Positions 13,419 through 22,696 of a stretch of DNA of 64,000 nucleotides are shown here, one piece after another. Where the stretch lies: assembly GCF_055900595.2 (NCBI RefSeq), contig NZ_CM148325.1. One strand, written 5' to 3'. The position numbers and the translations under genes are program-made. Each line of letters begins with the position of its first letter. Position 1 is the first letter of the stretch. Under the pieces are notes generated by a model. That model did not search any database and had not been told where the DNA came from. It was given only the letters and a program-made list of their open reading frames with translations.

Positions 13419-15107
13419 ATGGGTAGTGAAAAAAAGGCGAAAGGCTGGCGGTTCTATGGTCTTGTAGGTTTTGGCGCAATAGTACTGCTTTCCGCTGGTG
13501 TCTGGGCATTGCAATATGCTGGTAGTGGGCCAGAAAAAACGTTGTCGCCGCTGGTGGTACACAACAATCTGCAAATCGATCTCAATGAGCCGGATCTCTT
13601 TCTCGATAGCGACTCTCTGAGCCAGCTTCCCAAAGATCTTCTCACTATTCCGTTTCTTCACGATGTTCTAAGCGAAGATTTCGTTTTTTATTATCAGAAC
13701 CATGCCGACCGTCTGGGCATTGAAGGCAGCATTCGCCGCATTGTCTACGAACACGATCTCACACTAAAAGATAAGCTCTTTTCGTCACTCTTAGATCAGC
13801 CCGCGCAGGCGGCGCTATGGCACGATAAACAAGGCCATCTTTCTCATTATATGGTGCTGATCCAGCGAAGTGGTTTAAGCAAGCTGTTGGAGCCATTGCT
13901 GTTTGCCGCTACCAGCGACAGCCAGTTAAGTAAAACGGAAATCAGTAGTATTAAGCTAAATAGTGAAACCATCCCGGTTTATCAGTTGCGCTATAACGGC
14001 AATAACGTCCTGATGTTCGCAACTTATCAGGACAAGATGCTGGTGTTTTCCAGCACGGACATGCTGTTTAAAGATGATCAGCAGGATACCGAAGCCACGG
14101 CGATCGCAAGTGATTTGTTGAGCGGTAAAAAACGCTGGCAAGCCAGCTTTGGCCTGGAAGAGCGTACTGCCGAAAAAACGCCAGTACGCCAGCGCATCGT
14201 GGTCAGTGCAAATTTGCTGGGTTTTGGCTACCAGCGATTAATGCCTTCTTTTGCTGGTGTGCGCTTCGAAATGAGCAACGACGGCTGGCACAGTTTTCTG
14301 GCGTTAAATGATGAATCCGCAAGCGTAGATGCCAGTTTCGATTTTACGCCTGTATGGAACAGTATGCCTGCAGGGGCCAGCTTCTGTGTGGCGGTGCCTT
14401 ATTCACATGGTATTGCTGAAGAGATGCTTTCCCACATCAGCCAGGAAAACGACAAGCTCAACGGGGCGTTAGACGGTGCTGCGGGGCTGTGCTGGTATGA
14501 AGATTCAAAATTGCAAACTCCGCTGTTTGTCGGTCAGTTTGATGGCTCTGCCGAACAAGTGCAATTGCCAGGAAAACTGTTTACGCAAAATATTGGTGCG
14601 CACGAAAGCAAAGCCGCAGAAGGTATATTGCCAGTAACCCAGACGCAGCAGGGCGAAGCGCAAATCTGGCGTCGCGAAGTGAGTTCCCGATACGGTCAGT
14701 ATCCGAAAGCACAGGCGGCGCAACCAGATCAATTAATGTCGGATTATTTTTTCCGCGTGTCGCTGGCGATGCAAAACAAGACGATGCTTTTCTCCCTCGA
14801 TGACACGCTGGTCAATAACGCGTTGCAAACACTGAATAAAACCCGCCCGGCAATGGTGGATGTGATACCCACTGAAGGCATTGTTCCGGTCTATATCAAT
14901 CCACAAGGCGTGGCGAAACTGCTGCGTAACGAAACGCTGACCAGTCTGCCGAAGAATCTCGAACCGGTTTTTTATAACGCCGCACAAACTTTATTAATGC
15001 CGAAGCTGGACGCTTTATCTCAACAACCGCGTTATGTCATGAAGCTGGCCCAGATGGAACCCGGTGCCGCCTGGCAGTGGCTACCCATTACCTGGCAGCC
15101 ACTATGA
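13419..15107 (+). CDS. yfaA: YfaA, DUF2138-family protein; first gene of the alpha-2-macroglobulin operon
   Basis: ORF with N-terminal hydrophobic segment; start trimmed to [24 protein letters not shown] (562 aa); synteny with yfaT/yfaS. Confidence 0.8.
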
Positions 15108-15727
15108 GGCACGGGCTGCTGGCGCTGATTTGCTGGCTGTGTTGTGTTGTTGCTCATAGCGAAATGCTGAATGTCGAACAATCGGGGCTGTTTCGCGCCT
15201 GGTTTGTGCGTATTGCACAGGAACAGCTTCGCCAGGGGCCAAGTCCGCGCTGGTATCAGCAGGATTGTGCGGGCCTGGTGCGATTTTCGGCGAACGAGGC
15301 GCTGAAAGTTCACGACAGCAAATGGCTAAAAAGTAACGGTATAGCAAGTCAGTATTTGCCGCCTGAAATGACGCTAACACCTGAACAGCGTCAACTGGCG
15401 CAAAACTGGAATCAGGGGAACGGAAAAACCGGCCCCTATGTGACCGCGATTAATTTGATTCAGTACAACAGCCAATTTATTGGCCAGGACATAAACCAGG
15501 CGTTGCCTGGCGATATGATTTTTTTCGATCAGGGCGATGCCCAGCACTTAATGGTCTGGATGGGGCGTTACGTCATCTACCACACCGGAAGCGCCACGAA
15601 AACTGACAACGGAATGCGCGCAGTCAGTCTGCAACAACTTATGACATGGAAGGACACCCGATGGATACCCAACGATTCCAATCCCAATTTCATTGGCATT
15701 TATCGTTTAAATTTTCTGGCGCGATAG
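15104..15727 (+). CDS. yfaT: YfaT, DUF1175-family protein
   Basis: ORF overlapping the yfaA 3' end; start taken at [19 protein letters not shown] (signal-like), giving about 207 aa; start is uncertain (track ORF begins at 15077). Confidence 0.75.
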
Positions 15728-21915: not shown

Positions 21916-21919
21916 TGCT

Positions 21920-22696
21920 ATGCGAAAGATTTTTCTTCCGTTGTTACTGGTGGCGCTTTCGCCTGTCGCTCACAGTGAAGGTGTACAGGAAGTCGAGATT
22001 GATGCACCGCTCTCTGGCTGGCATCCGGCAGAGGGTGAAGATGCCAGCTTTTCACAATCGATCAATTACCCCGCGTCGTCCGTCAACATGGCAGATGATC
22101 AAAATATCTCAGCGCAGATCCGCGGCAAAATAAAGAATTATGCGGCGGCGGGTAAAGTTCAGCAGGGCCGGTTGGTGGTCAACGGTGCCAGTATGCCGCA
22201 GAGAATTGAATCCGATGGTTCATTTGCACGCCCTTATATTTTCACTGAAGGCAGCAACAGCGTGCAGGTCATCAGCCCAGATGGGCAAAGCCGACAAAAA
22301 ATGCAGTTTTACTCAACGCCGGGCGCTGGAGTGATCCGCGCGCGTTTACGGCTGGTTCTCTCCTGGGATACGGACAATACCGACCTCGATCTTCACGTTG
22401 TCACACCTGATGGCGAACACGCCTGGTACGGTAACACCGTGCTGAAAAACAGTGGTGCACTGGATATGGATGTCACGACGGGGTACGGACCCGAGATTTT
22501 CGCCATGCCAGCGCCGATTCACGGACGTTATCAGGTGTATATCAACTACTATGGCGGACGCAGCGAAACGGAATTGACGACCGCCCAACTGACGCTGATC
22601 ACCGATGAAGGATCGGTCAATGAGAAACAGGAAACTTTCATTGTACCGATGCGTAATGCTGGCGAGTTGACGCTGGTGAAAAGTTTTGACTGGTGA
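21920..22696 (+). CDS. yfaP: YfaP, DUF2135-family exported protein
   Basis: 258-aa ORF with signal peptide MRKIFLPLLLVALSPVAHS; last gene of the yfaATSQP cluster. Confidence 0.8.
   Translation: MRKIFLPLLLVALSPVAHSEGVQEVEIDAPLSGWHPAEGEDASFSQSINYPASSVNMADDQNISAQIRGKIKNYAAAGKVQQGRLVVNGASMPQRIESDGSFARPYIFTEGSNSVQVISPDGQSRQKMQFYSTPGAGVIRARLRLVLSWDTDNTDLDLHVVTPDGEHAWYGNTVLKNSGALDMDVTTGYGPEIFAMPAPIHGRYQVYINYYGGRSETELTTAQLTLITDEGSVNEKQETFIVPMRNAGELTLVKSFDW

Follow-up and report, generated by a model that had tools for sequence, protein, structure and literature searches.

The 64,000-nucleotide stretch of Escherichia coli DNA analysed here (the window) carries, between gyrA (10645-13272, plus strand) and the convergent gene atoB (22770-23954, minus strand), a block of five plus-strand open reading frames (ORFs), yfaA-yfaT-yfaS-yfaQ-yfaP, the longest of which encodes a homologue of alpha-2-macroglobulin (A2M). 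This is an ordinary, intact E. coli operon of a described and partly characterized system: by sequence comparison, it is the E. coli orthologue of the known magBCDEF genes of Pseudomonas aeruginosa, without magA. The five genes are the following:

13419-15107, plus strand: yfaA, 562 amino acids (aa); DUF2138, counterpart of MagB, with a predicted N-terminal transmembrane anchor and periplasmic alpha/beta body
15104-15727, plus strand: yfaT, 207 aa; DUF1175/MagC family, NlpC/P60-like, with a signal peptide
15661-20265, plus strand: yfaS, 1534 aa, or 1539 aa from an upstream ATG at 15646; A2M homologue, counterpart of MagD
20266-21915, plus strand: yfaQ, 549 aa; counterpart of MagE, with a signal peptide
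21920-22696, plus strand: yfaP, 258 aa; DUF2135/YfaP_C, with a signal peptide

As the original prediction had it, the genes are co-directional and tightly packed or overlapping, with junctions that either overlap or span 4 nt or less: yfaA and yfaT overlap by 4 nt (ATGA), yfaT and yfaS by 67 nt, the stop codon of yfaS abuts the start of yfaQ, and a gap of 4 nt separates yfaQ from yfaP. Terminator-like matches within the block occur at chance level only, and hairpins flank it on both sides:

13290-13313 and 13319-13349, plus strand: two tandem terminator-like hairpins 3' of gyrA, from sequence reading and RNA folding; upstream boundary of the yfa unit
22732-22764, strand unassigned: GC-rich hairpin with a T-run between the convergent yfaP and atoB, from sequence reading; downstream boundary

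The tight junctions, the flanking hairpins, and the chance level of internal terminator-like matches make the organization of the five genes as a single operon well supported by anatomy. The hairpin at 22732-22764 is likely a bidirectional terminator. A promoter scan found no sigma-70 consensus between the gyrA hairpins and yfaA.

The families expected from the original prediction, an A2M and four DUF proteins, are those found by Pfam: MG2 (6e-19), A2M_BRD (1e-16), A2M (6e-12), and bMG10 (4e-5) in YfaS, DUF2138 in YfaA, DUF1175 and a weak NLPC_P60 match in YfaT, two DUF2300 matches and SpoIID in YfaQ, and DUF2135 in YfaP. NCBIfam recognized YfaA alone among the yfa proteins, and none of the five was matched by PADLOC. 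Export signals had been expected on all the products, and a hydrophobic N-terminal segment is indeed present on each, with the amendment that the one of YfaA looks like an uncleaved anchor. Cleavable-looking signal peptides, read from the sequence and not with a dedicated predictor, end at AHS/E in YfaT, ANA/DD in YfaS, TLA/EE in YfaQ, and AHS/EG in YfaP.

YfaS and its thioester site

The reading frame of yfaS has no internal stop, in agreement with the full-length product of 1534-1539 aa originally proposed. The ATG at 15661, which keeps the n-region of the signal peptide and is the start used for b4500 of E. coli K-12, is preferred as start codon because a similar N-terminal motif (RQSQFYR.LS) is common to some distant homologues. 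The RefSeq/PGAP annotation places the start at GTG 15751 (1504 aa), losing most of the signal peptide.

15661-15774, plus strand: predicted Sec-type signal peptide of YfaS (…LANA/DD)

YfaS has three cysteines in total. Two of them, Cys25 and Cys27, sit in the hydrophobic core of the signal peptide, where the sequence IAAC loosely resembles a lipobox; it is followed by more hydrophobic residues and then by the signal-peptidase-I site ANA/DD, and the cysteine is missing in homologues. The family profile of YfaS matches ECAM (E=4e-31) and Sa-A2M (E=1e-27), as well as TEP1, A2ML1, C5, and CD109. A search of solved structures with the single YfaS sequence gives weak matches to C5 and CD109 only and misses ECAM, so that the family profile is needed to detect this relationship.

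The thioester position of YfaS had been read as LPEQ, and the lack of CxEQ had been taken to preclude the covalent protease trap of the ECAM/YfhM type. The second statement stands, and the first had to be moved. Relatives of YfaS were collected by exhaustive search, and 39 full-length representatives were aligned with ECAM, which places the two segments as follows:

18766-18777, plus strand: LPEQ of YfaS, aligned with a conserved LPxDA segment (a strand) about 30 residues upstream of the thioester column
18865-18876, plus strand: thioester-equivalent tetrad G1069-V-I-N1072 (GVIN) of YfaS, from the family alignment and the profile-to-ECAM alignment

LPEQ is encoded where it had been reported, but its alignment to the LPxDA segment rules it out as a degenerate thioester. 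In the thioester column, YfaS reads GGVINT, versus GCLEQT in ECAM (Cys1187) and GCVEQT in most relatives. The profile-to-ECAM alignment gives the same register, with 'dyPygcveqtaS' on 'AYPYGCLEQTAS'. The Cys, Glu, and Gln residues of CxEQ are all replaced. As no C.EQ occurs anywhere in YfaS, neither by motif search nor in the alignment column, and the protein has three cysteines only, a covalent trap of the ECAM/YfhM type is excluded at the sequence level.

The thioester among relatives of YfaS

Most relatives keep the site that YfaS has lost. CxEQ stands in the aligned column of 31 of the 39 full-length representatives, and the inspection of genomic neighbours places CxEQ-bearing relatives in the same type of operon as YfaS. 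The locus of P0007 is ordered DUF2138-MagC-A2M-DUF2300-YfaP_C-YfaP_C, P0010 has DUF2138 and MagC genes upstream, and DUF2300 and YfaP_C genes lie downstream of P0003. Among the sampled named genomes, every locus with a readable site from Betaproteobacteria, Desulfobacterota, and Oligoflexia carries GC[VAT]EQ. The sampled Pseudomonas species, which here and below are species other than P. aeruginosa except for comparisons with MagC, nearly all have GGVEQ, with the Cys alone lost, and two have GGVEE or GGVEH. The Escherichia site is GGVIN in E. coli and GGVVN in E. albertii.

In a neighbour-joining tree, the Cys-less sequences (GVEQ, SLEQ, SAEQ, TVEQ, GVEL, GVEH, GAEG) are scattered among Cys-bearing ones, and a CVEQ-bearing sequence adjoins the Pseudomonas clade. 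The tree has no support values, and the losses are therefore counted as several. The intact CxEQ of most relatives in the same operon type suggests that the thioester is ancestral in mag-type operons and that its Cys has been lost several times. The two bacterial A2M classes were reportedly first described by Budd et al. in 2004. An ancestral thioester in mag-type operons was not found in the accessible literature; an earlier mention by Budd et al. is possible. Type II A2Ms are defined by the missing thioester motif (PMC5764988, PMC12663445). Given the thioester-bearing A2Ms found in mag-type operons, this definition applies to a subclade rather than to the operon type.

Another arrangement is seen in metagenome-assembled genomes of Spirochaetota and Acidobacteria (L069-L071, L076), in which distant A2M homologues (23-25% identity) adjoin MagC-like genes and, in L069-L071, YfaP-like genes as well. 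No DUF2138 or DUF2300 gene was detected in these loci, where the operon may exist in a reduced or variant state.

Relation to the Mag system

The original prediction assigned the locus to a second bacterial A2M class already described as a cluster, and the match to the mag operon bears this out. YfaT is about 78% identical to MagC (PDB 7bk8; E=7e-103), and identity between YfaS and the Pseudomonas A2Ms of six-gene mag operons is 52-56%. In P. aeruginosa, the system is encoded by magABCDEF (PA4492-PA4487), with MagD as a 'type II' A2M, and the family order of MagB/C/D/E/F is that of the E. coli genes. YfaS and MagD have in common a signal peptide, apparently without lipid anchor in YfaS, the NRSER sequence in the bait, and the missing thioester Cys. 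YfaP resembles the Pseudomonas paralogue at the downstream, MagF position (54-58% identity) more than its counterpart at the upstream, MagA position (40-41%). The co-occurrence of these families is broad: a scan with one genome per species found about 40 Pseudomonas loci ordered YfaP-like, DUF2138, MagC-like, A2M, DUF2300, YfaP-like, as in magABCDEF, and matching operon content in about 60 loci from Pseudomonas, Betaproteobacteria, Desulfobacterota, and Oligoflexia.

Two further groups of bacterial A2Ms help to place YfaS. The mag-type A2Ms of Betaproteobacteria, Desulfobacterota, and Oligoflexia (Paraburkholderia, Massilia, Janthinobacterium, and Ralstonia among them; L030-L045) are 39-46% identical to YfaS over the full length. 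Their operons have the same YfaA-YfaT-A2M-YfaQ-YfaP order, often with a second YfaP, and the same YfaT and YfaQ motifs. Unlike YfaS, these A2Ms keep GC[VAT]EQ and presumably form the thioester. The 'type I' proteins, ECAM/YfhM and Salmonella Sa-A2M, share with YfaS the architecture of multiple macroglobulin (MG) domains, bait, thioester domain, and MG10, together with the periplasmic site. They differ in their CLEQ motif, covalent trapping, lipoprotein nature, and two-gene arrangement with pbpC, which encodes the penicillin-binding protein PBP1c. The neighbours of yfaS are yfaT and yfaQ, not pbpC; in K-12, pbpC adjoins yfhM elsewhere in the genome. Type I proteins are coupled genetically to a penicillin-binding fold, that of PBP1c, and YfaS to a predicted one, in the N-terminal domain of YfaQ. 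Function without a covalent bond is also known from eukaryotic members of the A2M and thioester-containing protein family that lack the thioester, complement C5 and ovostatin, although these differ from YfaS in being eukaryotic, soluble, and devoid of a membrane-anchored accessory complex.

The experimental evidence on the complex, its place at the inner membrane, the trapping, and the protection from effectors comes from P. aeruginosa only. MagD is a periplasmic, inner-membrane-associated protein and co-precipitates with MagA, MagB, and MagF (PMC3735191). The complex is anchored and stabilized by MagB, a protein with one membrane helix (PMC5764988). When its bait carries the cleavage site of the tobacco etch virus (TEV) protease, MagD holds on to TEV once cleaved, with no covalent bond involved (PMC5764988). 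In vivo, the cut that yields a MagD form of about 100 kDa takes place only inside the complex, and the MagD forms are altered in a magE deletion (PMC5764988). According to the text of the same paper, the two MagD forms are not markedly affected when magC is deleted (PMC5764988), a result that bears on whether MagC/YfaT takes part in MagD processing. A screen by CRISPR interference showed that the mag operon shields P. aeruginosa from VgrG3 and Tae1, type VI secretion system (T6SS) effectors directed at peptidoglycan (PMC12663445). The Mag complex, non-covalent trapping, and T6SS protection together render out of date the earlier statement that this A2M class has no established mechanism or target.

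Bait region

18175-18261, plus strand: bait region of YfaS, from alignment and column entropies

The variable part of the bait comprises about 16 residues (839-854, 18175-18222) and ends in NRSE. It is followed by a basic motif, ER.VK.LERPRR (855-866, within 18223-18261), near-invariant across the sampled classes, and then by a DTA.W.P motif opening the next macroglobulin domain. The NRSER of YfaS matches the MagD bait ANRSERG, which is the sequence that was swapped for the TEV site (PMC5764988). The whole bait stretch has zero amino-acid changes with respect to K-12. That the sequence next to the bait is so well kept would be consistent with its being recognized by a dedicated partner or a processing enzyme.

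Accessory proteins

YfaA is the putative anchor of the system. Its model (predicted local distance difference test score, pLDDT, 82.8) gives weak fold matches only, and contains a helix at residues 5-34 that resembles an uncleaved membrane anchor, like the N-terminal membrane helix reported for MagB. Profiles of YfaA and YfaP found no relatives among solved structures.

The features of YfaT point to a peptidoglycan-related fold. Its DCAG sequence aligns with DCSG of RipA (3pbi), and the Cys and both His residues of the triad are kept in at least 95% of 58 homologues. As judged from these alignments, YfaT is an NlpC/P60 papain-like fold that retains a catalytic-type triad.

15263-15274 (DCAG), 15545-15547 and 15581-15583 (His codons), plus strand: triad Cys55-His148-His160 of YfaT, from alignment

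YfaQ was modelled from a 43-sequence alignment (pLDDT 89.7, predicted template modelling score 0.78). In the prediction, it contains one penicillin-binding-like and one SpoIID-like domain, together with a HExxH motif. The motifs are distributed as follows:

20443-20454, plus strand: SLWK (S60-x-x-K63), invariant, at the start of predicted helix 59-72
20587-20595, plus strand: SCG (S108, 48 residues after S60), SxN-equivalent, non-canonical
20848-20856, plus strand: KTW (K195-T/S-aromatic), on predicted strand 192-200; KTG-equivalent, non-canonical KT[WFY]
21235-21267, plus strand: EEYVARVLDRE, SpoIID motif, aligned with EEYVTGVVASE of SpoIID
21823-21855, plus strand: HEYLHLAFDGY, with the C-terminal HExxH (HEYLH, 520-524)

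The N-terminal half adopts a penicillin-binding/beta-lactamase-like fold in the prediction, with no Pfam match at the sequence level. Pfam SpoIID was found in 40 of the 43 family members, and the SpoIID-type catalytic Glu motif is present. Residues H520, E521, H524, E536, and E540 are invariant in the 43 sequences. All sampled members outside Escherichia have a third His at +6 (HExxHxxxxxH), which is replaced by Tyr in E. coli and E. albertii (His530Tyr). YfaQ is called a 'tandem DUF2300' protein in the K-12 annotation. Its two DUF2300 matches (residues 84-205, 20515-20880; and 412-532, 21499-21861) are not detectably alike (BLASTP E=9.8), and differ in predicted fold, penicillin-binding-like versus SpoIID-like with a C-terminal segment.

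The nearest known systems for YfaQ are SpoIID/SleC lytic transglycosylases, class D beta-lactamase, the BlaR1-MecR1 sensor, and the transpeptidase domains of penicillin-binding proteins. YfaQ differs from penicillin-binding enzymes in its second and third motifs (SCG, KT[WFY]), and a C-terminal HExxH segment fused to both domains is peculiar to its family. That YfaQ has these two domains had already been put forward in a preprint of 2025 (bioRxiv 10.1101/2025.02.11.637708). According to this work, deletion of yfaQ in E. coli K-12 leads to wider cells and clusters with mutants of mepS, mepK, nlpI, and other peptidoglycan or envelope genes; the gene is present in about 98% of 131,610 genomes and missing from some sequence types (about 2%); and a YfaQ-msfGFP fusion gave no detectable signal (bioRxiv 10.1101/2025.02.11.637708). 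The HExxH motif of YfaQ, a link between YfaQ and a macroglobulin, and the parallel with PBP1c were not found in the accessible literature.

Conservation and selection in E. coli

The K-12 copy of yfaS (b4500) is annotated as a pseudogene, as originally stated, although the frameshift attributed to it is ruled out: the alignment of K-12 and window yfaS is gapless, and a single in-frame stop, TGA at codon 1368, is the only lesion. The corresponding truncated product of 1367 aa (P0001) is found among the representatives.

19762-19764, plus strand: Trp codon TGG (codon 1368) of yfaS; TGA in K-12 MG1655, the sole pseudogene lesion there

The nonsense mutation of K-12 appears to be recent, since the part of yfaS 3' of it still shows a ratio of nonsynonymous to synonymous substitution rates (dN/dS) of 0.10 with respect to the window. 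For the complete genes, dN/dS with respect to K-12 is 0.07 in yfaA, 0.07 in yfaT, 0.06 in yfaS, 0.11 in yfaQ, and 0.03 in yfaP, at synonymous divergences (dS) of 0.12-0.24; within YfaS it is 0.04-0.10 per domain, including the thioester domain that has lost its thioester. Values of 0.03-0.11 across the five genes argue for a functional operon and against a decaying remnant.

Among 5426 complete E. coli genomes, 5398 carry the operon and 5178 contain at least 80% of this 9.5-kb stretch. Sampled E. coli annotations show an intact yfaS coding sequence. An intact yfaS is the norm in E. coli and not a special feature of this strain.

Some genomes depart from this pattern. In the E. albertii type strain NBRC 107761 (L008, about 7750-9447), yfaA appears to be split into two ORFs of 379 and 220 codons, counted stop to stop, and the nucleotide alignment of the region with the window is gapped; yfaA may be a pseudogene there. 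In E. coli O157:H7 AC-3 (H24, NZ_CP169544.1), the match spans only 91% of the query, with an apbE annotation in place of yfaP, which suggests that this strain is rearranged or deleted at the yfaP end.

Proposed mechanism and alternatives

The five proteins probably form an inner-membrane-tethered periplasmic complex around a thioester-less A2M that protects the envelope, notably peptidoglycan, from incoming hydrolytic enzymes. YfaA, MagB-like and with one N-terminal membrane helix, would anchor and stabilize the complex in the inner membrane. YfaS, exported by Sec, would present its short bait loop and the near-invariant basic motif and, after bait cleavage, hold the target sterically, as a trap or a shield; the hold would be non-covalent only, because CxEQ has decayed to GVIN. 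The MagF-like YfaP would be a stoichiometric partner in the complex. YfaT (MagC-like) and YfaQ (MagE-like) would tie the complex to peptidoglycan, and may process YfaS or act on the wall. By analogy, the E. coli proteins would assemble and act as in P. aeruginosa, and YfaT and YfaQ may have a catalytic role.

Several points weigh against this proposal. The E. coli operon has five genes and no upstream magA (a second DUF2135 paralogue), with gyrA and its terminators directly upstream. The thioester site has drifted further in Escherichia (GVIN/GVVN) than in Pseudomonas (GVEQ), and the Tyr that replaces the third His of the MagE-type HExxHxxxxxH in Escherichia is another departure from Pseudomonas. 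MagE was located in the cytoplasm of P. aeruginosa, outside the complex (PMC3735191), which fits badly with a role on periplasmic peptidoglycan. DUF1175/MagC is listed as an inactive peptidoglycan binder, with reference to the paper on the MagC structure (PMC10318531). The literature search found no biochemical study of E. coli yfa proteins, and imaging of the yfaQ deletion only. As that phenotype was seen in K-12, with its truncated yfaS, YfaQ may act without the full-length macroglobulin. Finally, VgrG3 is lysozyme-like and not a protease, so that 'protease trap' may misdescribe the target.

Part of this evidence suits a machine for peptidoglycan remodelling, repair, or sensing, in which YfaQ and YfaT are the enzymes, the A2M is a scaffold, regulator, or substrate, and the basic motif is cut by YfaQ (through HExxH) or YfaT (through its Cys-His pair). 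Two of the four accessory proteins have peptidoglycan-enzyme folds with invariant catalytic-type residues, and a variable bait of some 16 residues followed by a near-invariant motif is unusual for a broad-spectrum bait. Cleavage of MagD is restricted to the complex, with its forms shifting in the magE deletion; loss of yfaQ widens cells and is linked to mepS, mepK, and nlpI even where yfaS is truncated; the MagD phenotype involves effectors that target peptidoglycan; and the many losses of the thioester imply that covalent capture is dispensable. However, MagD with a TEV bait does hold TEV after cleavage, no enzymatic activity has been shown for MagC (reported inactive on peptidoglycan) or MagE (cytoplasmic), YfaQ departs from the canonical KTG and SxN motifs, and the E. 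coli protein lacks the third His. Such a wall machine seems rather unlikely; the evidence does not separate it from the trap or shield, and both may be partly true. It is improbable that the operon is a decaying remnant in Escherichia, inherited and still transcribed while no longer useful. The loss of all three thioester residues, His530Tyr, the K-12 nonsense mutation, the split yfaA of the E. albertii type strain, the sequence types without yfaQ, and the undetectable YfaQ-msfGFP signal could all be read as decay, but purifying selection extends over the five genes, the thioester domain and the part beyond the K-12 stop included, sampled genomes have the operon intact and more than 95% of complete ones carry it, and the yfaQ deletion has a reproducible morphology phenotype. 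A classical covalent trap of the ECAM/YfhM type, for which the domain architecture common to YfaS, ECAM, and Sa-A2M and the CxEQ of most relatives in the same operon type could be invoked, has a negligible chance of being correct, given GVIN in the aligned column, no CxEQ at any other position, no convincing lipobox, and no adjacent pbpC.

A possible, if tentative, account comprises three points. The thioester loss in YfaS and MagD would be derived and repeated, and the ancestral machine thioester-bearing and coupled to peptidoglycan enzymes. YfaQ/MagE would be the functional counterpart of PBP1c in type I systems, which would make each of the two macroglobulin classes of bacteria a 'trap plus wall-maintenance' module. 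The basic motif would be an endogenous site of processing, at which YfaQ or YfaT cuts to arm the complex.

Interest in the operon comes from the place of bacterial macroglobulins in envelope defence, and the type II class has just gained its first clear phenotype, the resistance of P. aeruginosa to T6SS effectors. The E. coli operon offers a tractable orthologue, provided that the strain is not K-12, because of the nonsense codon in K-12 yfaS. Relatives that keep CxEQ in the same operon type allow side-by-side tests of what the thioester contributes. Other leads are the conserved triad of YfaT, the mutable SxxK, SpoIID-Glu, and HExxH motifs of YfaQ, and the basic motif beside the bait, maybe an endogenous processing site. 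These corrections and leads leave the classification unchanged, as the system is known and annotated.

Leader hairpin and lineage of the window

13403-13415, plus strand: small hairpin CACA-AGGAA-UGUG holding the yfaA Shine-Dalgarno sequence in its loop, from RNA folding

An Rfam scan of 13000-23000 gave no match. The sequence of the yfaA leader hairpin is identical in K-12 and E. albertii, and the hairpin is a candidate CsrA/RsmA-type site. In P. aeruginosa, mag is regulated through RetS/Gac/RsmA, with the control of its expression by RsmA described in PMC3735191. A literature search for a link between yfaA and CsrA in E. coli found no paper.

The window, as compared over 10645-25307, belongs to an unusually diverged lineage: only 8 of the 5398 E. 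coli genomes reach at least 99% identity over the yfa stretch, and most stand at about 95%. The flanks are also diverged from K-12 (gyrA 97.2% identity, dS 0.12; atoB 94.3%). As the operon and its flanking genes have diverged to the same extent, the divergence belongs to the lineage and not to the locus, and locus-specific divergence or a recent transfer within E. coli is ruled out. At the protein level, GyrA differs from that of K-12 by a single substitution, Ser83Leu (codon 83, 10891-10893), the classical quinolone-resistance substitution.

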